From: Limisphaerales bacterium
Lineage (GTDB): Bacteria; Patescibacteriota; Microgenomatia; UBA1400; PJMF01
Direction of reading: 5' to 3'
Assembly (NCBI GenBank): GCA_044350895.1
Contig: JBILGT010000002.1
Coordinates: 36,554 to 100,553, forward strand
Length of the DNA: 64,000 nt
Of this stretch, positions 4,208 through 35,984 are shown piece by piece; the stretch's first letter is position 1, and every line of letters starts with the position of its first letter. Under the pieces are notes generated by a model. That model had not been told where the DNA came from and ran no database searches. It saw only the letters and a list, made by a program, of their open reading frames with translations. Both the position numbers and the translations under genes were made by a program.

Positions 4208-4217
4208 TCATATATCT

Positions 4218-9606: not shown

Positions 9607-9966
9607 ATGTTTTTTCTAGTACAAAAAGTATATGCTGCAGGCTGCTCAGATCTAGACTATGGTTCTCCCGAACTTAATTTAGGCAGAGTGCTTTGCTTGA
9701 GCGACAGCACAGCTGTTGAAGATGTCTATAAAGATCCAGCATTTCTTGTCAACTTAATTGTTAGCAATTTATTTGTTTTTGCTGGAATAATAATTTTTCT
9801 TCTTATTTTTTACGCTGGATTTAAATTTATCTCTCAAGGAACTAAGGGCAAAGAGGAAGCAAAAGGGATCATTACTGCCGCTGTGACTGGCTTAGTATTG
9901 ATGTTTGCAGCATATTGGGTCCTCCAGATTGTAAAAACATTAACGGGGACTGACGTTGCACTCTAA
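9607..9966 (+). CDS. VirB2/TrbC-like pilin-type small membrane protein, paralog 1
   Basis: TM1 (LVNLIVSNLFVFAGIIIFLLIFYAGF), loop 'SQGTKGKEEAKG', TM2 (IITAAVTGLVLMFAAYWVLQIV). A TATAAT lies 12 bp upstream. Confidence 0.5.
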   Translation: MFFLVQKVYAAGCSDLDYGSPELNLGRVLCLSDSTAVEDVYKDPAFLVNLIVSNLFVFAGIIIFLLIFYAGFKFISQGTKGKEEAKGIITAAVTGLVLMFAAYWVLQIVKTLTGTDVAL

Positions 9967-9969
9967 ATT

Positions 9970-10419
9970 ATGAAAACAAATATAGTACTCAAAACTATTA
10001 GCTATATCTATCTTTTTGCTGTTATTATCAGTGCATTTTTCTGTATCCCAGGCCTCACCTTCGCACAAACTGCTGAAGACTTAGGGGTTGGAACAATTGC
10101 AGCCCCTCCTGGCGTGGATAAATATAATGCTGCCGCACAAGCGCAAGGTGCCGATATTGCGATCGTTTACTTTATGTCGAACATGATCAAGCTCTTTACG
10201 GTAGTTGCTGGAATCTGGGTAATTTTGAATGGCATTCTTGCAGGCTACTACTTTGTGCAATCAAGTGGAGACGCAGGCACCTATGAAAAAGCCCGTAATC
10301 AAATTACTCAAAGTGCCATTGGTCTTGCAATGATTGTACTTTCATATATGTTTACTGGGCTTGTTGGTTTACTTTTCTTTGGAGATGCGGGTATATTCTT
10401 AAATCCAAGGTTAAAATAG
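9970..10419 (+). CDS. VirB2/TrbC-like pilin-type small membrane protein, paralog 2
   Basis: Signal peptide plus 'VVAGIWVILNGILAGYYFVQSSGDAGTYEKARNQITQSAIGLAMIVLSYMFTGLVGLLFFGDAG'. Confidence 0.55.
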   Translation: MKTNIVLKTISYIYLFAVIISAFFCIPGLTFAQTAEDLGVGTIAAPPGVDKYNAAAQAQGADIAIVYFMSNMIKLFTVVAGIWVILNGILAGYYFVQSSGDAGTYEKARNQITQSAIGLAMIVLSYMFTGLVGLLFFGDAGIFLNPRLK

Positions 10420-10420
10420 T

Positions 10421-10969
10421 ATGAAACAGTTTATACTCAGCATCGTTGTTGCACTCTCAGTGCTATTCTTCGTCCCTACAGTGGCGCAAGCACAATCATG
10501 TCCTAGCAACCGGACTTGTAGTGGCGGTTGTACCGCTGTGGGCCAATGTGTTGGAAACAAACGATGTGTTAGTGTACAAGGCGTTATTTACCCTGGAACA
10601 GTTGATTGTGGTTCTGCCCAACTTGGCGGAGTTAAGCCACCTCCAGCTATTACTAGTTTTAATTTTCAAACTGGCTCTGCATCAGGCAATGGCATCATCC
10701 TCTTTTTATCTAGATTGATCAATCTTTTTGTCATAGTGTGTGGAATCTGGACAATGTTTAACTTTTTATATTCTGGATACATTCTAATTTCTTCTCAGTC
10801 AGATACTAAAAATCAAAGTGAAATAAAAGATAAATTAACAATGACAGCCATTGGCTTGGCTATTATTGCCGGAGCATACATAATCGCTGGACTAATCGGT
10901 CTTATTTTCTTTGGAGATGCGGGATATATTCTCAATCCGCAGCTCGTCAGCGCACTTGATAGAGGGTAA
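10421..10969 (+). CDS. VirB2/TrbC-like pilin-type small membrane protein, paralog 3 (with Cys-rich N-terminal extension)
   Basis: Signal peptide, a CPSNRTCSGGCTAVGQCVGNKRC module, then the shared two-helix domain ending 'IGLIFFGDAGYILNPQL' (same C-terminal tail as paralog 2). Confidence 0.55.
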   Translation: MKQFILSIVVALSVLFFVPTVAQAQSCPSNRTCSGGCTAVGQCVGNKRCVSVQGVIYPGTVDCGSAQLGGVKPPPAITSFNFQTGSASGNGIILFLSRLINLFVIVCGIWTMFNFLYSGYILISSQSDTKNQSEIKDKLTMTAIGLAIIAGAYIIAGLIGLIFFGDAGYILNPQLVSALDRG

Positions 10970-11025
10970 TATGGCTGGAAGATAGACTTTCTTCTGTCAT
11001 ATGGGTATAATTACAGGCGTACATT

Positions 11026-11406
11026 ATGATGATATACATAGCACAAAAACTTACCCAGTTCGGTTCTGGTTTTGCACCAGTTGTTGATACTGCATGGACA
11101 GATGGCTCAGATACAGAAGCAGGGGTACTTACCAATTTAGAAGCATTCATTTCACAAATCTTGGGACTGATTACAGTAATTGGTAGTTTGTTCTTTGTTA
11201 TCAACTTTCTCATGGCTGCCTTGAGCTGGATCACCGCAGCAGGTGACAGCGGCAAAATTCAAAAAGCTCGCGACCAGATGATTCAATCTACGTTGGGACT
11301 TGTTATTATGGTAGGCTCTTATGCAATAATTGGACTTATTGGATCAGTGGTTGGTATCGATATCTTACAACCAGGCCAAGCATTAAAGATGTTGATCCCA
11401 AGGTAA
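11026..11406 (+). CDS. VirB2/TrbC-like pilin-type small membrane protein, paralog 4
   Basis: 'WITAAGDSGKIQKARDQMIQSTLGLVIMVGSYAIIGLIG'. Confidence 0.55.
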   Translation: MMIYIAQKLTQFGSGFAPVVDTAWTDGSDTEAGVLTNLEAFISQILGLITVIGSLFFVINFLMAALSWITAAGDSGKIQKARDQMIQSTLGLVIMVGSYAIIGLIGSVVGIDILQPGQALKMLIPR

Positions 11407-11411
11407 ATTTA

Positions 11412-11840
11412 ATGTCATTAAACAAGTTACAAAAGACCATCTCATCAGTTACAACAACTACAGCACTTTTAGTGAGTAGTTCTACTTTGGCACTCGCTCA
11501 AACAGGCATAACCAATCCAGCAATTGGCATTTATGGTAAAGACCCAAATGCGGCCAAGGCCGGCACTTCATTTGCGGGGTATGTCGCTATCATGTGGAAA
11601 GCTATGATTTCAATTGGAGCATTACTAGTTCTCTTATACTTTGTATGGGGTGCAATCGATTGGATAACAGCCGCTGGAGATAAAGGTAAAATGGAAGGTG
11701 CCCGCAATAAAATGCTCAATGCCTTTATTGGTTTACTGCTATTGGTCAGCTCATACACCATAATTGCATTCGTTGGCTGGCTATTCTTTGGAACTGAATT
11801 CAACATCTTACAACCAATATTTATATTTAATAATCCATAA
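11412..11840 (+). CDS. VirB2/TrbC-like pilin-type small membrane protein, paralog 5
   Basis: Signal peptide plus 'WITAAGDKGKMEGARNKMLNAFIGLLLLVSSY'. Confidence 0.55.
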   Translation: MSLNKLQKTISSVTTTTALLVSSSTLALAQTGITNPAIGIYGKDPNAAKAGTSFAGYVAIMWKAMISIGALLVLLYFVWGAIDWITAAGDKGKMEGARNKMLNAFIGLLLLVSSYTIIAFVGWLFFGTEFNILQPIFIFNNP

Positions 11841-11845
11841 TATTT

Positions 11846-12187
11846 ATGCCAACACCAACAAAAATAGACTTACAAGGAGGCGCAATCCTCGCACAAATTC
11901 CAGGCACTGAGAACATGGAATCGCCAAATGCCGGCTTTGCCCGTCTTATTGGGAATATTCTTGCCGCAGTCATGGTTGTTTCATTACTCCTTGTTCTCTA
12001 CTTTTTAGTAGTTGGTGCAATTGAGTGGATTACGGCAGCTGGCGATAAAGGTAAAATTGATTCAGCACGTAACAAAATGACAAATGCTGTTATCGGCATC
12101 ATAGTTTTATCTTCCGTTACCGCACTATTTGCAGCTGTACAATATTTCTTAGGTGTCAATGTACTTACATTTTCATTTACCCCGTAA
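11846..12187 (+). CDS. VirB2/TrbC-like pilin-type small membrane protein, paralog 6
   Basis: 'WITAAGDKGKIDSARNKMTNAVIGIIVLSS'. Confidence 0.55.
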   Translation: MPTPTKIDLQGGAILAQIPGTENMESPNAGFARLIGNILAAVMVVSLLLVLYFLVVGAIEWITAAGDKGKIDSARNKMTNAVIGIIVLSSVTALFAAVQYFLGVNVLTFSFTP

Positions 12188-12325
12188 GGAGCGATTGATT
12201 CGCATACTTTAGAGTCTGGGTAAATCAAACTGGTACTTGCAAGCACTAAAAGTATATTGCTAAGCTATTACTTGACGGAGAGCATATAATATAATCTAGT
12301 GTAAGATACACTTACAAGGAGCAAG

Positions 12326-12739
12326 ATGATTGGTAAATTAAACACGGCATTAGTAGCCAGTACAGTAACTGGATTTTTAAGTGCACCAATTGCATTTGCA
12401 GTGGAACCTACTTCAGGAGTTACTTCAGCAGTTGGCACAGTCACAGCAGGAACTGGATGGGCAGATAACATCGGTGGTTTAATCACTAGTGTCTTAACTA
12501 TCGTCATGGTTGTTGCTATCCTACTCGTCTTACTCTACCTCATCATGGGTGGTATCGAATGGATCACATCTGGTGGTGATAAAGGTAAAACTGAAGGTGC
12601 TCGTAACAAAATTACCTCAGCTATCATTGGTATCATCATCTTGGCAGCAGCTTATGCGCTCGTCCAACTTGTCGCCTACGTATTAGGATTTGCAAGTCTG
12701 AACGCAGCTCTCGAATCATTACCTAGAATCGGTACGTAA
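12326..12739 (+). CDS. VirB2/TrbC-like pilin-type small membrane protein, paralog 7
   Basis: AAGGAG RBS 8 bp upstream of the ATG and a TATAAT around 12286. Signal peptide plus 'WITSGGDKGKTEGARNKITSAIIGIIILAAAYALVQLVAYVLGFASLNAAL'. Confidence 0.6.
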   Translation: MIGKLNTALVASTVTGFLSAPIAFAVEPTSGVTSAVGTVTAGTGWADNIGGLITSVLTIVMVVAILLVLLYLIMGGIEWITSGGDKGKTEGARNKITSAIIGIIILAAAYALVQLVAYVLGFASLNAALESLPRIGT

Positions 12740-13179
12740 TAACAATAATAATGAATTTAATTAAAAGGAGTTACATGTTAAATAAAATTCAAAAAGCAGC
12801 AGCAGCAACTGCGGGAGTCGCAGCCAGCTTACTAACCACTGCAGTAGCATACGCTAAAGATACCAGTGCTATAGGCACAGTCACACCAGGTACAGGTTGG
12901 GCAGATAACATCGGTGTTTTAATCACCAGTGTCCTCACCATCGTCATGGTTGTTGCTATCTTGCTCGTCTTACTTTACCTCATCATGGGTGGTATCGAAT
13001 GGATCACATCTGGTGGTGACAAAGGTAAAACTGAAGGTGCTCGTAACAAAATTACTTCAGCTATCATCGGTATTATCATCTTGGCCGCATCATATGCACT
13101 CGTCCAACTTGTCGCCTACGTCTTAGGATTTGCAAGTCTTAATGCCGCCCTGCTCTCATTGCCTCAAATCGGTAAGTAA
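12433..13179 (+). repeat. tandem duplication (~300 bp units, ~440 bp period) of pilin-type gene bodies
   Basis: 12461-12739 and 12901-13179 align base-for-base with only scattered substitutions (e.g. gcagataacatcggtg[g/t]tttaatcac...). Confidence 0.8.
12751..13179 (+). CDS. VirB2/TrbC-like pilin-type small membrane protein, paralog 8 (near-identical tandem copy of paralog 7)
   Basis: The probable true start is 12775 (AAAGGAG RBS just upstream; MLNKIQKAAAATAGVAASLLTTAVAYA signal peptide). The mature domain is about 90% identical at DNA level to paralog 7. Confidence 0.6.
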   Translation: MNLIKRSYMLNKIQKAAAATAGVAASLLTTAVAYAKDTSAIGTVTPGTGWADNIGVLITSVLTIVMVVAILLVLLYLIMGGIEWITSGGDKGKTEGARNKITSAIIGIIILAASYALVQLVAYVLGFASLNAALLSLPQIGK

Positions 13180-13202
13180 TATTTTTAAAATTAGAATTTC
13201 AG

Positions 13203-13230
13203 AAACCCCCATCTTGTATGGGGGTTTTTG
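13203..13230 (+). terminator. rho-independent terminator after pilin paralog 8
   Basis: AAACCCCCA-tcttgta-TGGGGGTTT followed by a T-run. Confidence 0.7.
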
Positions 13231-13266
13231 GTATATTAGGTGTGTTTGTTACACATTTGACCCACT

Positions 13267-13821
13267 TTGATGTATAATGTAAGTCTAATGAAAAAAGCCG
13301 TTATATCACTTGTATTAGTACTCATATTTAATTTTTTAGCTGTATTTAGCAATCCCATAGTATTCGCAGCAGACGAGGTAAAATTAGTCAAAGATGGTAG
13401 TACCTACTATCTGAGTACTGAAGGTTCTGCATCCACCACGCGCAGTGGACAAACCTATCGTCTTGTTCCTGTTGAGCAAACCGCCGCAACCAGTGCTGCA
13501 AAAACAGCATCTCGTTCAGCAGTTGTTCCGCCTCCTGGATATGTAGGTAATATTGGAGAGCTTATCAGCTTCTTACTTAAGTTGGTAATGATTGTGGCAA
13601 TTTTACTTATTCTTCTCGCCTTTATCACCGCTGGTTTTGAGTGGATTACATCTGGAGGTGACAAAGGTAAAACTGAAAGTGCCCGAAACCGCATTGTCGC
13701 AGCTTTTGTTGGTGTACTCATCTTATCTGCCGCATACGCATTAACACTACTCGTTGCCTATGTTCTTGGTTTTGATAGTATTGATGATGTTTTTGGCAGC
13801 ATTAAGCGAATTAATCCATAG
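13267..13821 (+). CDS. VirB2/TrbC-like pilin-type small membrane protein, paralog 9
   Basis: Probable start 13288 (MKKAVISLVLVLIFNFLAVFSNPIVFA). 'WITSGGDKGKTESARNRIVAAFVGVLILSAAYALTLLVAYVLGF'. Confidence 0.55.
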   Translation: MMYNVSLMKKAVISLVLVLIFNFLAVFSNPIVFAADEVKLVKDGSTYYLSTEGSASTTRSGQTYRLVPVEQTAATSAAKTASRSAVVPPPGYVGNIGELISFLLKLVMIVAILLILLAFITAGFEWITSGGDKGKTESARNRIVAAFVGVLILSAAYALTLLVAYVLGFDSIDDVFGSIKRINP

Positions 13822-13844
13822 GTCACAAACTCTACATTCACTTC

Positions 13845-14372
13845 TTGCTGTTCTATCAGGTATACTATAGAGATTCAAAATCTATGCGCCGTAACACATT
13901 TACCTATCAAGTAATTTCATTTTTTAGAGCTGCAATCTTCAGTGTCGCACTACTTGCAAACGTCGCTGGCCCAGTCTACGCCCAAACCCAGGCTTGGTCA
14001 GGTGTGTGTGTCGGCCCAGCTCAGATTAATGCAGCAACGAAAGCCAATGATGTTGCTACTATCCAAGGCGTTCAGTGTCTACTTGCCAATGTATTTACTG
14101 TGATCATAACAATCGTCGGTCTGGCAGGATTTGTCATGTTTATTGTAGGTGCCTTTAGATATTTGGTTTCTGGCTCAAATAGCAAGGGTATTGAAGCCGC
14201 CAAAAATACCATTCAATACATGGTGATCGGCATTATTGTAACGCTCAGTGGTTTCATCATTCTGAATATGATTTCTTCATTCACCGGAATCGACGTCATT
14301 ACTCGATTTGTTATTCCAAGTTCAGATCGTGGTACTTCTGCAGATGACTATCCAATTCCAGTTGGAATGTAA
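13845..14372 (+). CDS. VirB2/TrbC-like pilin-type small membrane protein, paralog 10 (divergent)
   Basis: Probable start 13884 (MRRNTF...signal peptide). 'IVGLAGFVMFIVGAFRYLVSGSNSKGIEAAKNTIQYMVIGIIVTLSGFIILNMI'. Confidence 0.45.
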   Translation: MLFYQVYYRDSKSMRRNTFTYQVISFFRAAIFSVALLANVAGPVYAQTQAWSGVCVGPAQINAATKANDVATIQGVQCLLANVFTVIITIVGLAGFVMFIVGAFRYLVSGSNSKGIEAAKNTIQYMVIGIIVTLSGFIILNMISSFTGIDVITRFVIPSSDRGTSADDYPIPVGM

Positions 14373-14459
14373 TGCTTGTCGATTCTCCCCGACAAAATTA
14401 TAAATTACAGCACAGCATTCTCTTTCAGCTAAACCTCATGAATTAGGTATAATACAACT

Positions 14460-17400
14460 ATGATCAAACTCACGGGTATGAGGTTGTTTTTTTTGTGTGT
14501 GAGTTTTGTCGTGGGATTAATTAGCAGCGCCACATTAGTCTACGCGCAATCCAGCAATTTTGCTTCCTTCAAAGAAGATCTCGACTTTGTCCGTTCTCAA
14601 AGTGCTGCGGTACTTCTCTTTACACCACTTGGCTCCAACCCTGATCCTAACTTCAAAAAGCATGCGCTCAGCATGCAGCAAGTTCAAACACTCTGTGGTC
14701 AAACCGGAGACTGCGGAAACCTCGGTATTAACTTTGCCACAATGTTTAAGAAAGGTCAGTACGACAAGCTCAAGCAACTTAATATGCACTGGGCACTCGA
14801 AATCGCAGAGAAAGGTCGTGAAGCCAATGCTGCATCCGCCATTAATGAAAATCCCGATGCTCGAATTATTGTCCGTATTGGTGTAGCTGGTAATTCTGGA
14901 GGATTTGCTGACTACAACGGGAATGCAGCAGATTATATCGAGTTTCTTAAAAATCTTTCTGGTCAGGTGGGTGGCAAAGAATTTTACGCCATTGCAGGTC
15001 CAAATGAGCCAGATATCGAAAAGTGGATTGATCCCAATTGTGGAAGTGCACCGGGAGTTGAGTCAGCAGATTCACAGAAATTTTTTGATTGTGTGGGGCC
15101 AAAATTAACGCAGTATATGAACGCTGTGTGCGCCGCCAATCTCCCCAGTAATATCAAACTCCTCACTCCTGCTTTCAACATGACTTCATATAGCTTCCCC
15201 GGAATTGTCGCAGCCATGGAAAAATCAGGGGCAAACTGGAAGTGTTTCGCAGATCGCCAAACTGGTTTTGCAGGCAACCTCTACCCTGCCGGAAAAGCCA
15301 TGAAAGCATACTGGAATGATGACTACACAGGAAAAACAATTCAATTTTTACAGAGCAAAGGTTTGAAGGTATATATAACTGAGACAGGACCACACACTGC
15401 AATCAGCGCCCAAGATGTAAATGCTACAGCCCATGATTTTAGCGAGTTCTACATCCACCCAATCAAAGGAATTACTGGAGGTGATAAAAATATCATTCGT
15501 GATGATTTGGTTCGGCAAGGCTATGAAGCACGCTGTGCGGCCCCTGGATTTAATATTGAACTAGGTCAAGATGGCATTGAATGGATGGAAAAATATCTTA
15601 AATGTCGCGATGATGGCAAATGTAATGATGGAGATGTTGGCGATGGAGCTTCTTTTGGAGGAGAGACCATTCAACAATTTACAGCCACAATGAATGAGCA
15701 TACCTCCATTGGTCAAAGAGTGCTTTCAATTCTATCAATCGACTATCGAGACTCACTGATCCCTGTTTTTAGAGATGTTGACCAAGTCCCACAACTGAAA
15801 CGGTCACTTGAGGATTATTTTGGCTACAGAGAACCCGCCAACGACCAATATAACCTTGCTGAACTTAGATCTTCAGCTATAAATTCACTCCTCACAACCA
15901 ACCAACGATGCACCCAATCTGCTATCTCACTCTTACAAAGAGACGAAATGTGTAAAAAGCTACAAGATCCGACTAAATGTGCGCTGTACGAATCAAAAGT
16001 GCCTGAGACCCAACTTACCGTAAAACAACTTCTAGATGCATACAATGCTTATGCAGGAATTTCCACTGACCATGACGCCACGTGCTCAAAAATAACTGGA
16101 GGAGCTGATACAGAACTGCGTCGTGGAATGCTTAATCTGCCACTGCAAATTGATAACGCGTATCGCCTCGCATTTCTCGTTACCACAATCAGAACTAGAG
16201 TTCCGCTGGCTGGAGATATGATGAACTTGTTCCAACATCCACACCGTGGAGAACTCAATGAAGCCCCCGATCCTGCCCACGTCGTAATTGTGACAGCATT
16301 TAAAATACCTGATATCACAACAAATAAAGGCACAATTGACACACAAGGTGAACCAAAAAGCGGTCATACAGACTTCAATGACCCAGCTATGTTGACTCGC
16401 GATGTACTTATCCCAAGTACCATCAAACAAGAACTCGACAGGAGAGGTGATCTTGAACGTAAGAGATTACTCAATATGGGTCAAGTGATTGCAGACCAGG
16501 ATCAAGATGATAAAACAATGGAAATTGCCTGTCGCATCAAAGGTGTTGGTGGACAACAATGTCTCGATCCTTTAACTAGTGCGCTGGTGGATATTATCAA
16601 CGCACAATCACTCATTGAGACTGAGAATGAACAACTTATTGAAAAAGCTGTCGGGACAGATGTCTATACTGCTGTAGAAAAAGAACAGATGTTCAAACTC
16701 AACTGTGACGATGCTCCAACTGAAGAACCCACCTATATATTTGATCCAGGTGAGCTACAGCCACTCAACAATGCCGGCCGCGTATTCAAAACTGACTTTG
16801 GCGTAGCGATTTTGGAAAATCTTTTCACCGATGAATCACACATGAGACCAGGAACTTTTGAGTATGATCCTACCTATGCTGATACTGAGAGTAATAAAAA
16901 ATCAGCCCCCGGTGGTTTCCACTGGGGACTTAAGTCAGTTTTCCATGTCACTAGTGACAACACGTTTGGACCAACAGATACCAGCCGTTCTGTGAAACAT
17001 TTCATCGTCTACCCTGAAGGGTACGACCTTAAAACTGTTGAAGCGGTTATGTCGGGCACATTCTTTACGACACAACAAATTGTGGCATTGAGGGATAAGG
17101 CTCTTGATTATCAACGATTCATGATTAAAGACGACAAAATTTTATTTGATGGCGGCGAAATTTCCCACTCATTTACCGACTATACAGTGGAATACGATGA
17201 GGGCTATTGCGATACAACCTACTATAATTCTGCTGGAGAACTCAAACGTACACCTCCTTGTCCCACAGGTTCATTCGGCTTCAGACTTTTTGCCAGTAAA
17301 GATCCCACTTCAGCAGGAATTCTGGGAGGTAGACTTGGATTTTGGATGCACACCATTCAGCTCACCCTGCAACGAGCAGAAGCACTCACCCACAAATATC

Positions 17401-18686
17401 TTGAGAATTGTACTAGTACTGAAGATTTCTTGCTAGATCAATGCGGAGGCTCTTCAAGTAGCCAAGTAGGTAGTGATGAAGACAAAGATGATGACTTTGA
17501 TAAGCTCCAGCCATTCCCAATCACCTACTGGAATGGCAGCGAAGTCACATTCAGACCACCAAATCGAGAAATGTGGGATGCAATTATCAGTGCTTCAAGT
17601 CAGCATGGTTGCGATCCGTGGCTCGTACTCGCCACTGCTCATGCTGAAAGTGCCAACTTTGTAAATGAATCTTCACCAGGTAGTAATGGCGAGCAAGGAC
17701 TCTTTGGGTTTACCCCTGCTGAATGGGAGAAATGGAAAACTGAGAACAATTCACCTGCCAATGCAGATCACCACATGTCTCGTTGTGACTACTGGCAGCC
17801 TACATCCTTTTCTGCCCGCACACTTGATTTCAGCTCCCCCACCAACATCCGCTCTGCTGTAGATTCTGCGTGTCGCAGAATCCTTTGGACTGGGGCGCAA
17901 AGGCAAAGCAGCACGCAACAAAAGTTTTTGTACGATTTCAGTAGCTCAAACAAAGCTTACAAGAGTAACCCTTGGAATGGAGTAACTCCTGATGCTGAGA
18001 TCTGGACTAACAGTACTAATCAAGCAGACTATGTCTTCCGTTTATGGCAAGAGCTTTTGACAAAAACCGGCAATACTCCAAAATCACAACCTACTGGATA
18101 TCCATATGCTACTTGTATGGGAGAAGCACCAAAACCGACTGTCATAGACACCAACGCAGACGCAGCCGACTACAAAGGTCGCACTACTCTTCCAGCCACC
18201 GGACAAGCAACATACTATAGTGCTGGGGTGATGAACCAAGTGCTCAACTATCGTGAAGGTGGAGAGATTAATCCAAATCTCGTGGATACTTGTGAAATTG
18301 CATCCACCGGGGCACTCAAAGCACAGTTTGATCAAATGCAGGCTGAAGCAGATCGCAATGGCACTGGTAAATTTGTGGGTTGTGCAGCAATGCTGCGTTT
18401 GGGTGATGTACGATTCAGAGATAATAAGGATAAGAATGACGTTCGGGTCGTATGGATTCAGCGGCCACCAGGAGCTCCTTCAGATATTCCAGAAGTGATT
18501 GGGCCAATTGCAATTATTGACGTGGCGGCATCTCAGGACTATGCACGGTTGCGCGCAAAGGGTTGGATTATTGACTTAGACTTCCACACCTTCCGCAGAT
18601 TATTTGAGTGGCAAGGCAGTTGGAGACGTCCACAAGAAGGCATTAGAGTGTGTGACACAAGAGATCAGTGTTTACTTGGAAGTTAA
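14460..18686 (+). CDS. giant secreted multidomain hydrolase: clan GH-A glycosidase-like domain + lytic transglycosylase (SLT, VirB1-like) + C-terminal 3D/DPBB-like domain
   Basis: Signal peptide (MIKLTGMRLFFLCVSFVVGLISSATLVYAQ). 'AIAGPNEPD' (GH-A acid/base NEP) and 'VYITETGPH' (nucleophile TExG) in the N-terminal third. SLT catalytic region 'LVLATAHAESANF...GEQGLFGFTPAEW'. 'GQATYYSAGVMNQV...GEINP' near the C-terminus resembles 3D/RlpA-like DPBB. Confidence 0.65.
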   Translation: MIKLTGMRLFFLCVSFVVGLISSATLVYAQSSNFASFKEDLDFVRSQSAAVLLFTPLGSNPDPNFKKHALSMQQVQTLCGQTGDCGNLGINFATMFKKGQYDKLKQLNMHWALEIAEKGREANAASAINENPDARIIVRIGVAGNSGGFADYNGNAADYIEFLKNLSGQVGGKEFYAIAGPNEPDIEKWIDPNCGSAPGVESADSQKFFDCVGPKLTQYMNAVCAANLPSNIKLLTPAFNMTSYSFPGIVAAMEKSGANWKCFADRQTGFAGNLYPAGKAMKAYWNDDYTGKTIQFLQSKGLKVYITETGPHTAISAQDVNATAHDFSEFYIHPIKGITGGDKNIIRDDLVRQGYEARCAAPGFNIELGQDGIEWMEKYLKCRDDGKCNDGDVGDGASFGGETIQQFTATMNEHTSIGQRVLSILSIDYRDSLIPVFRDVDQVPQLKRSLEDYFGYREPANDQYNLAELRSSAINSLLTTNQRCTQSAISLLQRDEMCKKLQDPTKCALYESKVPETQLTVKQLLDAYNAYAGISTDHDATCSKITGGADTELRRGMLNLPLQIDNAYRLAFLVTTIRTRVPLAGDMMNLFQHPHRGELNEAPDPAHVVIVTAFKIPDITTNKGTIDTQGEPKSGHTDFNDPAMLTRDVLIPSTIKQELDRRGDLERKRLLNMGQVIADQDQDDKTMEIACRIKGVGGQQCLDPLTSALVDIINAQSLIETENEQLIEKAVGTDVYTAVEKEQMFKLNCDDAPTEEPTYIFDPGELQPLNNAGRVFKTDFGVAILENLFTDESHMRPGTFEYDPTYADTESNKKSAPGGFHWGLKSVFHVTSDNTFGPTDTSRSVKHFIVYPEGYDLKTVEAVMSGTFFTTQQIVALRDKALDYQRFMIKDDKILFDGGEISHSFTDYTVEYDEGYCDTTYYNSAGELKRTPPCPTGSFGFRLFASKDPTSAGILGGRLGFWMHTIQLTLQRAEALTHKYLENCTSTEDFLLDQCGGSSSSQVGSDEDKDDDFDKLQPFPITYWNGSEVTFRPPNREMWDAIISASSQHGCDPWLVLATAHAESANFVNESSPGSNGEQGLFGFTPAEWEKWKTENNSPANADHHMSRCDYWQPTSFSARTLDFSSPTNIRSAVDSACRRILWTGAQRQSSTQQKFLYDFSSSNKAYKSNPWNGVTPDAEIWTNSTNQADYVFRLWQELLTKTGNTPKSQPTGYPYATCMGEAPKPTVIDTNADAADYKGRTTLPATGQATYYSAGVMNQVLNYREGGEINPNLVDTCEIASTGALKAQFDQMQAEADRNGTGKFVGCAAMLRLGDVRFRDNKDKNDVRVVWIQRPPGAPSDIPEVIGPIAIIDVAASQDYARLRAKGWIIDLDFHTFRRLFEWQGSWRRPQEGIRVCDTRDQCLLGS

Positions 18687-18702: not shown

Positions 18703-19614
18703 TTAGATTCGCTTACTTGGTGAGAACTCTGGTGGTGGTGAAATACTATTCTTTTTGTTAGCTGGCTTCACAATTTTTGACTTATTGTTTTTTTCAGGTT
18801 CACGAAGCCCCCCTTCAACGGTGAAACCAATATCTGTTTCCACTGGAGTCGCCTTTTCCTGACTGTTTTTCTTAAAGTTTCGACGCGCACCAAATCGTAT
18901 AAGTTGCGCCACTACTTCAAAAGTTTCAGCAGAAGTTGTTACTGAACTTAAGTTCTGAGTACTGTTTTCAATCCCAGCTAATAAATTTGTAGCCACTTCA
19001 CTTTCAATGGATATTCCCAAATTCTGCAGTAGTTGGGCAATTACTTCACTACTGGAACTCACTGAGCCTGAATCGATTTTCACTGTCCCAAACGATGTCG
19101 TAAAGTTGTTAATAGAAACAAGTGAAGCAGTTTTGAATAAGTCCTCATATCCAAAGTAGAGTTGTTCCAAACTTTCGAGATCAGTTACACCCACTAAAAA
19201 AACTGCATCTGCGACTGCGCCAGTATATGTGAATTCAACTTGTGATGCATCAAGCGGTGGGAACCCTGCTTTTGGCTTGATGGTCAAATAAAATTTGCCC
19301 GTATCCTCACCAATGTGATAACTCACCTTATCCACTTGTTCTGGAGAATATGCAAAACTTATTCCCAGATTTTGATTTCCCATATCGATTTGCGTTTGCT
19401 CAATACCAATCAATGAGGCATCTGTTCTCTCCTCTATTTGCGGCGAAACGAGCCGCACCGACTTTTGTGCAGCAGAAAATGCTAAATACAAACTAGCCGC
19501 AACTGCACGATGATCAAATGATGTTTGTGAAGGGTGAATAACCAGAATTGTACTGGCAGAATCAAGTATGTTTTTAAGTTGTGACAACTGTGTTTCATCG
19601 AGCATAGAATTCAA
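18703..19614 (-). CDS. DHH-family phosphoesterase-like protein (degenerate motifs)
   Basis: 'ILVIHPSQTSFDHRA' where NrnA-type proteins have 'IxxHxxPDGDA'. 'TVEGG' near the C-terminus resembles the DHHA1 GGH region. Weak. Confidence 0.3.
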   Translation of the reverse strand: MNSMLDETQLSQLKNILDSASTILVIHPSQTSFDHRAVAASLYLAFSAAQKSVRLVSPQIEERTDASLIGIEQTQIDMGNQNLGISFAYSPEQVDKVSYHIGEDTGKFYLTIKPKAGFPPLDASQVEFTYTGAVADAVFLVGVTDLESLEQLYFGYEDLFKTASLVSINNFTTSFGTVKIDSGSVSSSSEVIAQLLQNLGISIESEVATNLLAGIENSTQNLSSVTTSAETFEVVAQLIRFGARRNFKKNSQEKATPVETDIGFTVEGGLREPEKNNKSKIVKPANKKNSISPPPEFSPSKRI

Positions 19615-19728
19615 TCCCTATAACTATGTATATTTGTTATCACACTATACCAATCGTTGTCTACATACAAAAAAAATTCCCAAGTTACTTTACCCTTTGC
19701 ATCATACTTTTGGTATACTACACACATC

Positions 19729-21426
19729 ATGTTGAAACGGATACTTCTGACCGTGTTTTCTTTGTTTGTGCTCAACACAAGTATTGTGAGTGCTCAAGGT
19801 ACAGCACCTACCCCAACTCCTGGTGCTGATGCAGACAACAATGGGTACGTTGATAACCCATACAGTTATAATATAACCACCGATGAGTATGCCTCATATA
19901 AAAAAGCCACTCAAAATTGTGAGACCCCTTCCCTAGAATGTTTGGTCAAGTACACTACTCGCTTTGCAGCTATGGAGTGGGCACTCGATATCGCCTATGG
20001 TCAAAAAATTGCTGACAACGGGCGCAGTGGCGGCGTCTTTGCAGGAGTAATGGGACTTGTAAATGAGATGTACAAGAATCCTGCGGCACACACAGCTACC
20101 TATGTGGCTGACGTGATGCACACAGCTGGTTTTGCTCCAAAAGCATATGCGCAAGGTCTGGGTTTTGCGTCCCTTGATCCAATTTTGAACTTATGGAAAG
20201 TGTTCAGAAATGTAGCGTACTTCTTCTTCATTATCATTTTCATTTTCTTAGGCTTTATGATTATGCTGCGCAAAAAGATCAGTGGACAGGCAGCAGTCAC
20301 TGCTCAGCAAGCAATTCCATCAGTCATTATTAGTTTGATTCTCGTCACTTTTTCCTATGCCATTGCTGGTTTCATGATTGATTTAATGTATGTACTGATG
20401 TTCCTTATTGTGGGCGTATTTGAAGGAATAACATCGAGTATCGAAGTGGCTGGACAACAAATGACTGGCGCGACCCTAGTTAACCTCAACTTTATTGGAT
20501 TGTTCGCATTTCTTTTTAAAGCAAATACTGATGCCCAGGCAATTGGAACTAACATAAACATTTCATCAAGTATTATTGAAGCAGCGGCAGATAGCTCTAA
20601 TGTGGCAACATACTTAGGTGGTGTTATCGGTGGATTGACACTCACCTTGATCATCACGGTTGCTGTTTTAATTGGTTCTGTCAGATTATTCTTTGAATTA
20701 CTCAAATCATATGCATCCATTATTATGTATGTTGTCACTAGTCCATTAGTATTAATGTTTGGAGCACTTCCTGGTAACGATGTATTTGGGAAATGGATCA
20801 AAGGAATTATTGGAAACCTTCTTGCCTTCCCCACAGTTTTATTAGTGTTGATAATTTTCATTGAATTTACCCATCAAGGTGGTAGCGCTGGCGGCGCAAC
20901 TGCAGGATTCATGCCACCATTTTTAATTGGAAATGGCAGTGCTGCAAACATGATTGGGCCACTACTGGGTCTTGCTATTATCTTAGGACTTCCAGACATT
21001 GTGAAAGAAGTTAAAAAAGCGGCAGGTGCTGGAGAAGGTGGAATTGGCAGCATGCTTGCTGGCTTTGCTACAAGTAATTTGAAGTCAGGAATTAGATACT
21101 CGCCGATTACAGGGCGCGCGGCTGGATATATTGGCGGTGCTGGAGAAGGAATAGCTAGAGCGGCGTATAACGGTGACTTCTTGACTAGACCAGGTGTTGC
21201 TTGGGACAAAATCAAAGGTTATGCTGGAGTACGAGGTGGGCAAGGTGCTGACTTCGGAAAGAGATTCGCGTCTGGTGCAGAACAGGTTTTTGAAAACAAA
21301 TGGATGGATCCTAATGCCTGGGAAAATGTCATTTTGTCTCAAGGTAGAGAGAAAAAAGCTGCAGAAATCAAGGCGCGTCTTGAAAAACTTGACAAACTCG
21401 GTCGTACCCCAGGCAGAAGATCTTAA
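19729..21426 (+). CDS. VirB6/TrbL-like polytopic membrane protein with Gly-rich C-terminal tail
   Basis: Probable start 19729 (MLKRILLTVFSLFVLNTSIVSAQ). About 130 aa extracellular, then about 8 TM helices and a G/A-rich cytoplasmic tail. The topology matches VirB6; there is no sequence-specific motif. Confidence 0.45.
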   Translation: MLKRILLTVFSLFVLNTSIVSAQGTAPTPTPGADADNNGYVDNPYSYNITTDEYASYKKATQNCETPSLECLVKYTTRFAAMEWALDIAYGQKIADNGRSGGVFAGVMGLVNEMYKNPAAHTATYVADVMHTAGFAPKAYAQGLGFASLDPILNLWKVFRNVAYFFFIIIFIFLGFMIMLRKKISGQAAVTAQQAIPSVIISLILVTFSYAIAGFMIDLMYVLMFLIVGVFEGITSSIEVAGQQMTGATLVNLNFIGLFAFLFKANTDAQAIGTNINISSSIIEAAADSSNVATYLGGVIGGLTLTLIITVAVLIGSVRLFFELLKSYASIIMYVVTSPLVLMFGALPGNDVFGKWIKGIIGNLLAFPTVLLVLIIFIEFTHQGGSAGGATAGFMPPFLIGNGSAANMIGPLLGLAIILGLPDIVKEVKKAAGAGEGGIGSMLAGFATSNLKSGIRYSPITGRAAGYIGGAGEGIARAAYNGDFLTRPGVAWDKIKGYAGVRGGQGADFGKRFASGAEQVFENKWMDPNAWENVILSQGREKKAAEIKARLEKLDKLGRTPGRRS

Positions 21427-27605: not shown

Positions 27606-30600
27606 ATGGCATCCGATACTCAACCTCGGCAGATTGTTTTTGTGGCTGGAACTACTACTTCAGTAGATGAGTATCCTGTTGATGTAGACCACATAAAACA
27701 AATTGGTTTTTACTCCTCTGATGATTTTATTCAGTTTAAAGATCTCTTTTTAGAGCTCATCAATTCTCTCCATCTTAATGATCAAGGTATTTACGAACTA
27801 TATCCCGGTCAAGAAATCAAACAGATTCGCATTACATATCAAAAGGATGGCGGAAATTTTCAAAAAGTTTCACTTCGCACTACCGATGGATTACCTGGTG
27901 ACCCAGGAATACCAGAAAAACGGGAACGACTTTTCTTCTGTGACTTTGTCTATATTTCACTCGGCATCGCCAAAATCCTTCGAAAGAACTATCCCAAATC
28001 TACTGAAACACTGAAAGACTATACCGACAGCTTCGATATTGAGAAACAAATTAAAGAATGGGGAGCTGCTGGAGAGAAGCAGTATCTTTCCCAACGAGCA
28101 CTGCAGTGGGAAACTCCAGCAATCAAAGAGTTGCTTACTGAAATTTTTACGGCGTTTCAAGATATCACTGTAGAACTTAAAAAAGAGCCTGTCCAAGAAC
28201 CACCAGCTGAGGAATCAGGTGAACGACGCGCTACAGAAGCTGATGCTCTACTTGTCTTACCAGAAGTTTTGACTGCAGGAGTCACTCCAACTGTAGATGG
28301 TGGTGGCGATACAGCTGATACTACTAGCACACCTACTAGCACAAGAACTGAATCAATTGAAGATGAATCAAGCTACGTAACAGCGCGACAATTTGTTTTG
28401 GGGTTTGCGAGAACAACATTGATTGACGATGTCTTGAGGCGCAGTGGTCTAGATCCTGATTCTTTACCGCCTGAACTTCGAGGGCGATATGATGAGCTCT
28501 TCAGAATTCTTGAAACAGAACTAACTATTGTGCTGAGAAATCTTTCTGATGAAGAACGAGAACGACTTGCTTCTGGCGATGTGAGTCAAAAAATTTCCGT
28601 CTACTATTTACTACTCCGCCAATTATCAGGTAGTCCATCAGCACGTTTTTATGAGTTGTTTGTAGAATTTTATGAAACAGAAGTCACACATCTAGTTGAG
28701 AACCAACAAACAGAAGCGGCCCAACAACTTGTGACCGCAGTAACTGCCCAGTTTAGCGAAGTAGCACAAGAAATTCCTGAGCTTCAAAGAATTCATGATA
28801 ATTTACTAGCCTGGGAGCGTGAAATTTTGAGTGCAGCTCCAGTTGCAGCAACAACTGCTGAGACTGATGATGAAATCGAAACACCAGCTACTATTGTAGA
28901 AGCAACTGATGAAGTTGAAATACAGATCTCTCGCCTCCCCGATCCGCCAGTTATCATTCCAACGTTCCAAGCGCAAGTCAGTGCGCTTCCTCAAGTCCAA
29001 CAACTTACACAAAACGAGCAGGCCAGCATCCCCAATCGTTCTGGCCACGTTATTTGGGGAGCAATGGCTGAACTATTTTCAGAGGAAGATCTTCGTCGAA
29101 ATAATATTCCACCAGAGCTTTTTAACGCTGTTTCTCAGACTGCTTATGAATACCTCAATGGACTTTCTGCGCAGGAACTTAAAAAACTTGCAAAATCACC
29201 AAGTAGTTTAATTCGTCATATAAAAAATGTTTCTGTCAGACTACAAACTGATGCTGTTTTTAGTGAAACATACGGACAATACAAGTTATCCTATGCTACA
29301 CCAGCAATTAATCGTACCGAGCGAATTGAAGTTGAGACACAGTGGGCTTCTGAGAATTTGAAATACGAACTTTTCAGTGCCCACGACATTACGACATCAT
29401 TACTCAACCAATCTGCAAAATTAACCAGTGAGTATCGTGATGTTGAACAGAATCTTGAAGCAAAAGTTTATGGTATTTTCCTTACATTTAGTACTGATTA
29501 TCTCCAACTTTTATACTTCAATCCCAACGAGCGACGTACCTTAATCATTCGAATACAAAACACACTCAATGCTGATCCTCAGTTTTTAAGAGAATTAAGT
29601 GAGTTTTACAACGAACTAATTGTCTATTTTGCTGAACAACAAAGACTTGAGGAACGTGAAGACCTTGTTGAGAGTTTAAAAAGTACTAATCACTCATTTT
29701 TACAAGAAGAAGGCACTTTTCGCTATATTGTCAGTGATGTTCAACTATCAGATTCACACAAATTATTTATTGAGCAGTTAAAAAAGAGCTTAAACACTGA
29801 CTCCCCGCCAATCTTGCAAAACACTGCAAATGTGCTCGACGCCCTGATCATTGCACATGGAATCGAAGAAACTAACCGTCTTATTCAAGGGGTAAGTCCA
29901 CAACTACTAGAAATGACGTTTGGATTACCCACAGGGATCATTACTGATGACAACCATCGGTCGATTAGAGAAATTTTGGGTAACTACATAACTGTTCGTG
30001 TTTTCAACCTTGCACCAGGTGAAATTGCCGATCACAGAGCCCTATTAGTACCAGGTCAGACTACTATTCCTACAAATGCCACTAGTTTGCAGAAACACTT
30101 GGGACCAGTACATAATCTTGCAAAAATAATTACTGAAGATGGTTCTGAAAAAACGACTCTTGCACTACAAGGCGGAGTTAAGAAAAGAATTGATGCATTA
30201 GAAAAGGTTTTGGGACAAAAGTGGAGAAACTTAGGACTTGAGGAACGTGCAGCAGTTTACTTGTACTTTGATAAACCGTTTGATGCTTCACTTAAGCAAC
30301 GTCTAAAAAGTAAGTCAGCAGATTTGGAAGCTGACAAGCATATTTTAGGCGTCTTCATAGAATTTGCAGGTTTTAACGATCGATTATTGCCAGAGCTTGT
30401 CACTGATGCTCGGCTTAATGGATTTCAAAGATTAACTGGTGGAATCCCTGTTGAGACTAAATCGGGTGATGATATTACTGAGTTTTACAAAATCACCCGT
30501 CAAGCTGAAATACTTGAGCTTGAAGTTTCACTACTCGTACTAGACGAACTTTCAGCATTAGAGCGGGAACAACTTGCAGCACAGTACCAGATGTCTGCTG

Positions 30601-32447
30601 CGCAGCTTGAAGCTGCTTACCTCACCGCAATCACTACCAATCAAGGAATGCACTCACTTCCCGGGCCAGATGAGATCACACAAGTTGGAGGTGATCAACA
30701 ACCCGCCCAGCCTGGACAAAACTTGCCTGAGAGTACTACCAGAAGCCCACTCAGAGAGCGACTGAAAAATGGACTCAGAAAAAAAGCCACAGGAGAAATA
30801 ACTAAGAGACTTGGTGCAGCAACTGCCGAAAAAGCCCTTTTTGGTCTTGGAGGCAAACTGGCTGGTTTGGCATCTGGGGTTGGTGCTGCAATTGCTGCAG
30901 CTGCATTGATTAAGGACGTTCTCACTGAACTTTGGAATAACGAGGGCTTACGAAATCTACTCGCTGGGGCATTAACTGTCGGTTCAGCAATTTTGCTTAA
31001 TATTCTTGGAAATGTGGCGGGACTTTTAACTTTTGCTGCAATAAGTTTTGTGGGAGGATTTTCTATCCCCGCTCTCTTAGCTGGATTAGCTGCTGGTCAA
31101 GCAGCAGCCATGGCAGCACCTTGGGCACGCTGGTTTTCACAACCACGCACACCACCAAACCCATTTGGTTTCTCAACTGGTAGTGAGCAGTCAGCATCAG
31201 GAACTCCATCATTAGCTCAAATGCGTGGAAAAGCTCCTGGGGCGACTCCCCAATCGTCCATTTCACCTACTCCAGAATCAACCACAGCGACTGCAAATAG
31301 TGGAGTAACACCAGATGGTTCAAATGCTTCTGTTTCTGCTACAACCCAATATAGTACAACTTCAACAACAGCCGCTACTGCTTCTGGATTGTCTCAACTT
31401 GCTGCTATACCTATTGCTATTCTGGCTCCAACAATGGGAATTTTCACCGTTTTCATATCAACAATATTGGTTGTCACTGTTATTGCAGGAGCATTTTTAG
31501 TACCAGTTCCTACAAAACCAAATTCTCGCAAGGTAATTGATGGACTTGGACAACAGTCCAGTTCCAAATACGTCACTATCACAAAAACTCCTTCAATTGG
31601 AGCTACAAAAGGAGAAATTCAAAATAGAACAGATGTTCCTGTTACGTACACAATTACTGTTGAACCAAAGCCAGGATATTCAATAAAAGTTACTGGCGTA
31701 AAAGATGAATTTTCTGGAATTGGTGGGCAAACAACAGACCTGCAATCAAAACTTGATTTTTCAAAATTCCCCAGTGAACCAATCAAGGACTCTTCATTTT
31801 CAACAAGCTATACGGTCAATACAGGCACCAATTTGATTGATGCACTTATAATGAATGCTGTTACAGCAACCTTTGATGTATACGATTACACTGGGTACGT
31901 AATTGAAACGGGTGAAACATATACCGCAACAGCAACTATTTATATTGGTAATCCAAAAGTAGGCTGTTGGCCAACTAGTGGTGGTGTATGGCAACTGCCT
32001 GGTGGTAGCTTCAGTCATAGCAGATTGGATGCATACGACATTGGAAATGAAATTGGAACTCCTGTGTATGCGCCATTCCCTGGAGAAGTATGTGATAAAG
32101 GATATGACACTGCAGCAAGCGGTGGATATGGGCTCCACGCCAGTTTGAAGTTCAACCTAGGTGGCGGAGATCTCGTCCTATTTTTTGGTCACTTTGTTAA
32201 AAGTCCAAAAGATTTAATTGAAGGACTTGATGCCCGCGGATGTAAGACTGTTAATGCTGGAACACTCATAGGACTGATGGATGACACAGGTTTTTCCACA
32301 GCATCTCACTTACATTACGAACTGAGACCAAATACAATTGGGGTGAAGCTCAAAGATTTGCATCCAGATGGTCAACAGGTTATTAATTCATTCAACAGTG
32401 GAAAAAGGCCAGTGATCGTCCGAGACTGTTTTGGAGGAACAAAATAA
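27606..32447 (+). CDS. giant (1613 aa) membrane protein: large cytoplasmic N-terminal region, Gly/Ala-zipper TM segments, extracellular C-terminal M23 (LytM) peptidase domain
   Basis: C-terminus 'HSRLDAYDIGNEIGTPVYAPFPGEV...GGYGLHASLKF...GTLIGLMDDTGFSTASHLHYELRP' is the M23 signature (HxxxD...HxH). TM cluster 'GLASGVGAAIAAAAL...ALTVGSAILLNILGNVAGLLTFAAISFVGGFSIPALLAGLAAGQAAAMAA' and 'IAILAPTMGIFTVFISTILVVTVIAGAFLV'. Confidence 0.65.
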   Translation: MASDTQPRQIVFVAGTTTSVDEYPVDVDHIKQIGFYSSDDFIQFKDLFLELINSLHLNDQGIYELYPGQEIKQIRITYQKDGGNFQKVSLRTTDGLPGDPGIPEKRERLFFCDFVYISLGIAKILRKNYPKSTETLKDYTDSFDIEKQIKEWGAAGEKQYLSQRALQWETPAIKELLTEIFTAFQDITVELKKEPVQEPPAEESGERRATEADALLVLPEVLTAGVTPTVDGGGDTADTTSTPTSTRTESIEDESSYVTARQFVLGFARTTLIDDVLRRSGLDPDSLPPELRGRYDELFRILETELTIVLRNLSDEERERLASGDVSQKISVYYLLLRQLSGSPSARFYELFVEFYETEVTHLVENQQTEAAQQLVTAVTAQFSEVAQEIPELQRIHDNLLAWEREILSAAPVAATTAETDDEIETPATIVEATDEVEIQISRLPDPPVIIPTFQAQVSALPQVQQLTQNEQASIPNRSGHVIWGAMAELFSEEDLRRNNIPPELFNAVSQTAYEYLNGLSAQELKKLAKSPSSLIRHIKNVSVRLQTDAVFSETYGQYKLSYATPAINRTERIEVETQWASENLKYELFSAHDITTSLLNQSAKLTSEYRDVEQNLEAKVYGIFLTFSTDYLQLLYFNPNERRTLIIRIQNTLNADPQFLRELSEFYNELIVYFAEQQRLEEREDLVESLKSTNHSFLQEEGTFRYIVSDVQLSDSHKLFIEQLKKSLNTDSPPILQNTANVLDALIIAHGIEETNRLIQGVSPQLLEMTFGLPTGIITDDNHRSIREILGNYITVRVFNLAPGEIADHRALLVPGQTTIPTNATSLQKHLGPVHNLAKIITEDGSEKTTLALQGGVKKRIDALEKVLGQKWRNLGLEERAAVYLYFDKPFDASLKQRLKSKSADLEADKHILGVFIEFAGFNDRLLPELVTDARLNGFQRLTGGIPVETKSGDDITEFYKITRQAEILELEVSLLVLDELSALEREQLAAQYQMSAAQLEAAYLTAITTNQGMHSLPGPDEITQVGGDQQPAQPGQNLPESTTRSPLRERLKNGLRKKATGEITKRLGAATAEKALFGLGGKLAGLASGVGAAIAAAALIKDVLTELWNNEGLRNLLAGALTVGSAILLNILGNVAGLLTFAAISFVGGFSIPALLAGLAAGQAAAMAAPWARWFSQPRTPPNPFGFSTGSEQSASGTPSLAQMRGKAPGATPQSSISPTPESTTATANSGVTPDGSNASVSATTQYSTTSTTAATASGLSQLAAIPIAILAPTMGIFTVFISTILVVTVIAGAFLVPVPTKPNSRKVIDGLGQQSSSKYVTITKTPSIGATKGEIQNRTDVPVTYTITVEPKPGYSIKVTGVKDEFSGIGGQTTDLQSKLDFSKFPSEPIKDSSFSTSYTVNTGTNLIDALIMNAVTATFDVYDYTGYVIETGETYTATATIYIGNPKVGCWPTSGGVWQLPGGSFSHSRLDAYDIGNEIGTPVYAPFPGEVCDKGYDTAASGGYGLHASLKFNLGGGDLVLFFGHFVKSPKDLIEGLDARGCKTVNAGTLIGLMDDTGFSTASHLHYELRPNTIGVKLKDLHPDGQQVINSFNSGKRPVIVRDCFGGTK

Positions 32448-33451: not shown

Positions 33452-33493
33452 ATCATGATAAGATACTAAAGAAAAGAATCGTGAACTTCATGT

Positions 33494-35923: not shown

Positions 35924-35984
35924 AATGACTTTTTTAATAAAGCCACTTTTACTCTGAGGTAAAATACAAGTACAATAGAAACCA

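Follow-up and report, generated by a model that had tools for sequence, protein, structure and literature searches.

The gene at positions 14460-18686 (forward strand) of a 64,000-nucleotide stretch of contig JBILGT010000002.1 (the window, from a Microgenomatia bacterium) encodes a protein of 1408 amino acids (aa) that we take, with rather more confidence than doubt, to be a Sec-exported, modular glycan-cleaving accessory of a Patescibacteria (Microgenomatia/Paceibacteria) type IV secretion system (T4SS)-pilus locus, acting to breach the envelope. As such it probably supplies the wall-cutting activity that has been missing from the secretion/pilus machine. The assignment to the T4SS or pilus follows from the ten pilin genes of family PF18895 upstream and from genes for PrgI/VirB3, VirB4, an M23 protein and DnaA downstream, in a conserved order. 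The glycan-cutting role is argued from Foldseek matches of one domain to lytic transglycosylases, from the register of that domain in hhalign alignments, and from the recurrence among relatives of lysozyme-like tails and of barrels with NE/TE.G motifs.

An exported modular protein behind a ten-pilin array

A single open reading frame (ORF) with an ATG start spans the gene, and the start codon assignment is right because five relatives (53-87% identity) align with the protein from its residue 1. The N-terminus (MIKLTGMRLFFLCVSFVVGLISSATLVYA|QSS) is the sole hydrophobic stretch of the protein and, with a VYA|QSS cleavage-type site and a predicted helix at aa 2-22, reads as a Sec-type signal peptide (aa 1-29; 14460..14546, +), its long h-region making a signal anchor possible instead. 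The signal sequence and the Cys content (29 residues, of which C13 belongs to the signal peptide and 28 to the mature protein; many are invariant) fit an extracytoplasmic protein. The original prediction, made from the DNA letters, of a secreted 1408-aa protein was borne out in ORF, start and N-terminal export signal, and the motifs that it named lie where it had placed them (NEP at aa 182-184, TETG of ITETG at 307-310, AES at 1062-1064 and GLFGF at 1080-1084). A perfect TATAAT was seen about 8 nt 5' of the ATG (ggTATAATacaactATG; window 14440-14460), with no obvious Shine-Dalgarno sequence, and the gene may own a promoter and a leaderless or very-short-leader mRNA; a promoter and terminator scan gave a signal no higher than background.

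Directly upstream lie ten genes for VirB2-like T4SS pilins, pil1 to pil10 (9607..14372, +), with a PF18895 match in all ten. Homologues of the 1408-aa protein were found in the same place in 41 genome and two metagenome loci, all from Patescibacteria metagenome-assembled genomes (MAGs), and in about 37 loci the homologue is preceded by one-to-one orthologues of pil1-pil10 in unchanged order. The arrangement of pil1-10, the homologue, a gene for a 303-aa protein on the opposite strand and a gene for a 589-aa protein with nine transmembrane (TM) segments on the same strand recurs in essentially all 43 loci, and such retained placement across loci rules out a chance neighbourhood. Since each of the ten pilin paralogues has an ordered orthologue in about 37 MAGs, whose large-protein homologues are only 22-60% identical to the query, they are not the product of a recent tandem amplification, and their conservation implies a conserved multi-pilin filament. 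The same constancy bears on the idea that the protein is a housekeeping autolysin for growth or division which stands near T4SS genes by accident. Wall-remodelling genes (SpoIID, VanW/PG_binding_4) are scattered through the window, as would suit a housekeeping function, but the slot after pil10 and before the 303-/589-aa genes is kept in essentially all loci by homologues at only 22-60% identity to the query, which makes an accidental position barely credible.

No domain was recognised in the protein by library searches. Pfam (whole protein and four segments), PHROGs and NCBIfam returned zero matches, Pfam gave no match in any of 14 full-length family members (the query and 13 relatives), and searches of Protein Data Bank (PDB) sequences, run both with the protein itself and with the family profiles A1, A2 and A4, gave nothing significant; PDB-sequence matches to a 'mosquitocidal toxin' (E 0.23) and to a GH5 protein (E 0.55) were treated as noise. 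Because no hidden Markov model (HMM) library recognises any domain, the domain calls rest on predicted structure and motif conservation.

A search of 5.8 billion proteins recovered 77 relatives, those with a named source being Patescibacteria (Woesebacteria, Pacebacteria or Dojkabacteria) save one labelled Bacteroidia. With boundaries set by phmmer and BLAST against these 77, the protein consists of four modules: S1 (aa ~33-315), found in 44 of the 51 S2-bearing proteins, the rest of which carry other N-terminal domains; S2 (aa 325-1000), the sole universal module (51/51); and, beyond an acidic linker (aa 1001-1018), S3 (aa 1019-1225; 29 proteins) and S4 (aa 1232-1408; 18 proteins). Tails with S3 only, S4 only, S3 and S4 together, or neither, all occur among the relatives.

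Predicted folds and conserved residues

An AlphaFold2 (AF2) model of aa 1-1000, built on an alignment of 50 sequences (mean predicted local distance difference test score, pLDDT, 84.5), places strands in S1 (14556..15404, +) at aa 50-54, 88-95, 111-116, 135-140, 175-178, 232-235, 269-273 and 303-309 with helices between them, which is the (beta/alpha)8 TIM-barrel fold of glycoside hydrolase (GH) clan GH-A. The NEP motif (15003..15011, +), with the putative acid/base Glu183, comes directly after strand 175-178, and TETG (15378..15389, +), with the putative nucleophile Glu308, closes strand 303-309, the third strand on, with 232-235 and 269-273 intervening. S1 is called GH-A-like because this strand spacing is the beta4/beta7 spacing that defines the clan; the absolute strand numbers depend on taking strand 50-54 as a permuted beta8. 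Chance occurrence of the motifs is countered by the invariance of GPNEPD and ITETGP in 43/43 relatives whose S1 identity ranges from 37 to 86%, and R139, N182, E183, N240, N273, Y275, W285 and E308 were likewise conserved in all 43.

Foldseek searches with the S1 model returned generic TIM barrels only, and the only GH link was a sub-threshold match to PF11790 (Glyco_hydro_cc) inside the barrel of the stand-alone relative P0092 (18.5 bits vs a 21-bit cut-off). A word-index search with S1 alone added nine relatives, none with a GH annotation, and an exhaustive S1 profile search closed on a family of 396 proteins, of which none of the 150 listed formed a link to a known GH family. The Pfam GH matches of P0054 (PF11790, PF02449) were set aside as support for S1, as they sit in a second, downstream barrel outside the S1-homologous region. 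From its model, S1 appears to be a divergent, permuted GH-A-like barrel outside every sequence-defined GH family. Of the GH-A glycosidase domain originally predicted, the barrel and the NEP/TETG spacing stand, and the mismatch named in advance as telling against it (NEP and TExG lying off beta4 and beta7) did not occur in the AF2 model, but the barrel is circularly permuted and falls in no GH family by sequence.

The permutation is read from aa ~33-80 ('FASFKEDLDFVRSQSAAVLLFTPLGSNPDPNFKKH'), which match the stretch downstream of the nucleophile strand in relatives with a collinear barrel (P0086 411-457, E 2e-6; P0080 308-339; P0069 305-344), so that strand 50-54 would be beta8 relocated to the N-terminus. 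A third arrangement was seen in P0052-P0076. Patescibacteria hold three circular permutants of one TIM-barrel family (P0052-P0076, P0080, P0083-P0086 and the query family), namely the canonical beta1...beta8 order in stand-alone proteins, an N-terminal alpha7-beta8 in the query family, and beta5-7 before alpha7-beta8-beta1-4 in the large proteins of the third group, and they make a neat case for studies of protein evolution.

A separate AF2 model of aa 1001-1408 (mean pLDDT 89.8) suggests that S3 (17514..18134, +) is a GH23/SLT-like lysozyme fold with Glu1063 (nt 17646-17648) as the putative catalytic residue. Foldseek ranks 1-38 for this C-terminal model were nearly all Slt70, MltE, MltF, LtgA or phiKZ gp144, and three were S. 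aureus autolysin E, with probabilities up to 0.99 but a best E of 0.012 and a TM-score of ~0.48 normalised to MltE. The helix of aa 1053-1063 terminates at E1063-S1064, and N1069 and G-x-G-x-F-Q follow downstream in the same order as the motifs of SLT domains. The motifs ES..N..G.GxFQ and YVxRLW were conserved, with E1063 retained in 28/31, N1069 in 31/31, G1080 in 29/31 and Y1191 in 30/31 sequences. Weak hhalign alignments to E. coli MltE and the Slt70 C-domain (P 0.009 and 0.04) set E1063 on MltE E64 and Slt70 E478, and Y1191 on MltE Y192.

The Pfam check proposed for an SLT annotation found no match in the 1408-aa protein or its segments, and S3 compared with the SLT-type HMMs PF01464, PF13406 and PF18896 gave none at E <= 10. 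Pfam SLT_3 (PF18896) domains occupy the same C-terminal slot after S2 in several orthologues and share an ES...GLFQ motif with S3, but hhalign finds no significant relation between the two beyond GLFQ. The lytic transglycosylase that had been predicted is thus upheld in its lysozyme fold and in the register of E1063 with MltE and Slt70, whereas no SLT HMM matches it and the description 'VirB1-type' holds by analogy only. Given that Pfam finds no SLT domain, homology to the VirB1/TrsG/CD419 profiles is unlikely. In P0009 and P0010, which retain S4, the column of E1063 is occupied by Met, and the S3 module of these two proteins may be catalytically dead.

S4 (18153..18683, +) is likely a DPBB (double-psi beta-barrel) of the 3D/RlpA/barwin-like kind. 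Its model has six strands and helices in DPBB order, with a helix preceding the last strand, and D1316, D1354, D1372 and E1279 were invariant (19/19). The sole barwin-like Foldseek match, 4jp6, ranked 42nd (E 0.55, TMt 0.55), and the likeness to RlpA of the patterns G-x-A-T-Y-Y, C-A-A-M, G-P-I-A-I-I-D-V and W-I-I-D-L-D is by eye only. No similarity was found by hhalign between the S4 profile and E. coli RlpA or MltA, Pfam gave no match to S4, and a homologue search with S4 alone gave nothing new. The 3D/DPBB-like domain first proposed therefore keeps its strand topology, its three invariant Asp and its one barwin match, but gains nothing from these profile comparisons.

The family-defining core, S2 (15432..17459, +), was conserved in 51/51 family proteins and had no sequence match, and no structural match among the Foldseek matches listed. 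The Ser/Asp-rich linker that follows (17460..17513, +; SSSSQVGSDEDKDDDFDK) begins with eight residues, aa 1001-1008, of pLDDT < 50 in the C-terminal model, and some orthologues have a Cys-rich insert of ~300 aa at its position. The universality of S2 among modules that otherwise come and go would suit a mainly structural or adhesive part, such as an adhesin of the pilus tip or cell surface with S2 as its scaffold, whose enzyme-like domains attach to glycans with little or no cleavage. The Cys-rich, CBM-like tails of some orthologues and the Met at the S3 catalytic position in P0009 and P0010 point the same way, as does the report that no adhesin such as PrgB was found in Patescibacteria T4SS loci (PMC12102498). 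Conservation of E183, E308 and N182 in 43/43, of E1063 in 28/31 and of the three Asp in 19/19 sequences is unexpected for pure binding modules, however, and we hold a purely adhesive role to be very unlikely.

Module exchange and the putative target of cleavage

The family shares a layout in which a glycosidase-like barrel is followed by S2 and usually by a lysozyme-like head, and within it the modules at both ends are swapped. Orthologues that match in S2 only carry at least three further types of N-terminal domain, two of them GH-A-like: group C begins with a homologous barrel bearing WNEPN (hhalign probability 94%), group D carries 'KPLWITEIG', and groups A and B were too divergent for alignment ahead of the S2 start. 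A barrel with NE.../...TE.G is thus recurrent at the N-terminus. The C-terminal tails comprise S3, Pfam SLT_3, two more lysozyme-like domains of an 'ESG' type ('WGEESGF', 'ITESGG'), S4 alone, and a Cys-rich stretch of ~150 aa. Two relatives are further extended, P0020 (2167 aa) by an endonuclease/exonuclease/phosphatase-like N-terminus and a pectate-lyase-like region and P0069 (1731 aa) by an NAGPA phosphodiester glycosidase, and these extra modules point to a wider toolbox of envelope-glycan enzymes on the same barrel or core.

In the mechanism that we propose, the S2 core would position the protein after export at the pilus/T4SS assembly site or at the cell surface. S3, GH23-like with a single catalytic Glu1063 at a helix end, would cleave the MurNAc-GlcNAc backbone of peptidoglycan, and S4, DPBB-like with three invariant Asp, would bind glycan strands or cut them too. 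S1 would be a glycosidase with the retaining mechanism of the GH-A type, in which Glu183 serves as the acid/base and Glu308 as the nucleophile, and would hydrolyse some beta-linked polysaccharide of the envelope other than peptidoglycan, for instance a capsule, an S-layer glycan or a secondary wall polymer. All the catalytic functions given here to E183, E308, E1063 and the three Asp are putative. Acting together, the modules would clear a way for a VirB2-like pilus or channel through an envelope rich in sugars, and the protein would be a functional counterpart of VirB1, PrgK or TraG that HMM surveys have left undetected beside most Patescibacteria T4SSs.

Several observations weigh against a glycan-cleaving accessory of this kind. 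The protein has no HMM match to any GH, SLT or 3D family, and S2, half of its length, is left unexplained. Some orthologues have Cys-rich tails instead of a lysozyme-like module and two (P0009, P0010) have Met for Glu1063, so that peptidoglycan cleavage is not universal in the family. A membrane-anchored M23 hydrolase is already encoded in the locus and could serve as the wall opener.

If the protein does breach an envelope, the chances are about even between that of the producer and that of a host at the contact site. Tight adjacency to the pilin genes, as for virB1-virB2, and the strong conservation of S1 lean towards the producer's own envelope; module swapping, the missing anchor domain and the presence of an M23 hydrolase on another protein favour the host's. 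Where a query-type S1 is kept, its mean identity is 50% vs 42% for the S2 core, with S1 the higher in 37/42 comparisons. A rapid diversification of S1 is for this reason not borne out, and to judge from these identities S1 is under strong purifying selection, as expected for an active enzyme with a stable substrate.

These data bear on the possibility, raised in the original prediction, that the protein is a host-directed weapon, which leaves the cell or travels on or close to the pilus, digests the wall, capsule or exopolysaccharide of the host where the cells attach, and so enables T4SS contact, effector delivery or nutrient release, rather than assembly through the producer's own wall. A weapon of this sort would accord with export in the absence of a recognisable wall-anchoring domain, with the joining of a non-peptidoglycan glycosidase-like barrel to peptidoglycan-type modules, and with the swapping of both enzymatic ends between lineages around a fixed S2 core and fixed pilins. 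The NAGPA or pectate-lyase-like modules of other relatives and a separate TM-bearing M23 hydrolase that could already open the self wall are also in its favour, and lytic transglycosylases of Patescibacteria have been proposed in reviews to compromise the host envelope (PMC11665869). Autolysins also shuffle domains, however, and the greater conservation of the kept S1 than of the core carries no arms-race signature; we regard the weapon, the chief rival of the reading given above, as possible but doubtful. A pilus-coupled 'drill head', in which S2, as a new fold, docks on the multi-pilin filament or T4SS and presents to the host envelope a changing set of glycanase modules drawn from permuted GH-A barrels, several lysozyme-like types and DPBB domains, is a speculative idea that we place on the unlikely side.

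The secretion locus and comparison with known wall hydrolases

Downstream of the gene, the 303-aa cytoplasmic DHH-like protein (-) and the 589-aa nine-TM VirB6-like protein (+) are encoded within 18703..21426 (assigned by synteny, TM scan and weak NCBIfam matches). They are followed by a 1560-aa cytoplasmic ORF (21515-26197, -) without TM segments, whose only domain match is a weak one to DUF6827 and whose conservation was detectable, for all its position inside the T4SS locus, only in two of the fetched loci (L014, L022). An EamA transporter gene lies between this ORF and the rest of the T4SS core (27606..38048, +; Pfam, NCBIfam and TM scan), which encodes a 1613-aa M23 protein, a 334-aa bitopic protein, a PrgI/VirB3-like protein, a VirB4-N/TrsD-like protein and the VirB4 ATPase. 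The 1613-aa protein (27606-32447, +) carries five TM segments at aa ~1084-1300 and ends in an M23 peptidase (Pfam, TM scan); its conservation extends to the downstream part of several loci, and it gives the same T4SS locus a second candidate wall hydrolase. The 412-aa VirB4-N/TrsD-like gene (34685-35923, +; NCBIfam E 1e-7 and 1e-6) stands just upstream of virB4 (35985-38048, +), and VirB4 may be split or have a TrsD-like partner; dnaA and dnaN lie downstream of it.

A VirD4/TrwB-type coupling protein (PF10412, PF12696) is encoded at 62204-63898 (-), 24 kb from virB4; the T4SS of S. epibionticum was reported to be without a recognisable coupling protein (PMC10633639). Two larger proteins of 431 and 445 aa (2912-5534, +) carry the T4SS_pilin domain only C-terminally (PF18895, E 1e-6 and 1e-5) and may, by their sequences, be pilins with large N-terminal heads. 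Scans of the window with Rfam and for tRNAs found nothing, and its uniform GC content of ~41% gave no sign of a foreign island. The locus agrees with what has been published on the T4SS loci of Microgenomatia, with pilin arrays of 2-11 genes typical of Microgenomatia, virB4 near dnaA, a monoderm-type machine and rare VirB1 homologues (PMC12102498). Many of the GenBank MAG records that hold this Patescibacteria-specific locus (L003-L041) are titled 'uncultured Pseudomonadales bacterium', including isolates HK-STAS-PATE-xx, which looks like a systematic taxonomy mislabel.

With VirB1 of Agrobacterium and other diderm T4SSs, the protein shares a place within a T4SS cluster beside VirB2-type pilin and other VirB genes, Sec export and, as predicted here, a lysozyme fold with a single catalytic Glu followed by Ser and by G-x-x-Q. 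VirB1, however, is a protein of ~240 aa with essentially nothing but an SLT domain and is recognised by PF01464 and MPF-T profiles, whereas the present protein has 1408 aa and no SLT HMM match, and some orthologues do without its lysozyme-like module. Among known enzymes the glycoside hydrolases of clan GH-A (GH5, GH26, GH53, GH128/PF11790) also stand close to it. PrgK (pCF10), TraG (pIP501) and TcpG share with it a monoderm-type T4SS context and the presence of several wall-degrading modules in one polypeptide. They combine an SLT or muramidase domain with CHAP or LytM behind an N-terminal TM anchor, in contrast to the GH-A-like barrel, 680-aa core, GH23-like and DPBB-like modules found here, and the M23 module of the present locus is on the separate 1613-aa membrane protein. 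In RpfB/YabE-type proteins, lysozyme-like Rpf or MltA-like 3D domains serve as interchangeable glycan-strand-directed heads on DUF348/G5 carriers; to our knowledge these proteins have no T4SS association. The S3-only, S4-only and S3+S4 forms of the present family resemble them, but the carrier is S1+S2 instead, with no detectable sequence relation.

Multidomain wall hydrolases associated with T4SSs are already known; in the literature searched there was no description of the present domain combination, of the permuted GH-A-like barrel, of the S2 core or of a strict coupling to ten pilins. The role of the Patescibacteria T4SS has been called 'completely unknown', yet epibiotic growth could not do without the system in the only species examined for this (PMC11665869, PMC10633639), and by HMM surveys most Patescibacteria T4SSs are without a VirB1-type wall hydrolase (PMC12102498). 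A family that is invisible to domain libraries and yet syntenic with a pilin array is a concrete candidate for this missing wall-hydrolase activity. It would add a second, non-peptidoglycan glycosidase chemistry to the T4SS locus, it supplies candidate catalytic residues (E183, E308, E1063 and D1316/D1354/D1372), and it defines a core of ~680 residues of unknown fold. Should the 'drill head' prove true, the modules that a lineage carries would mirror the range of its hosts and would explain how epibionts breach the walls of their hosts.

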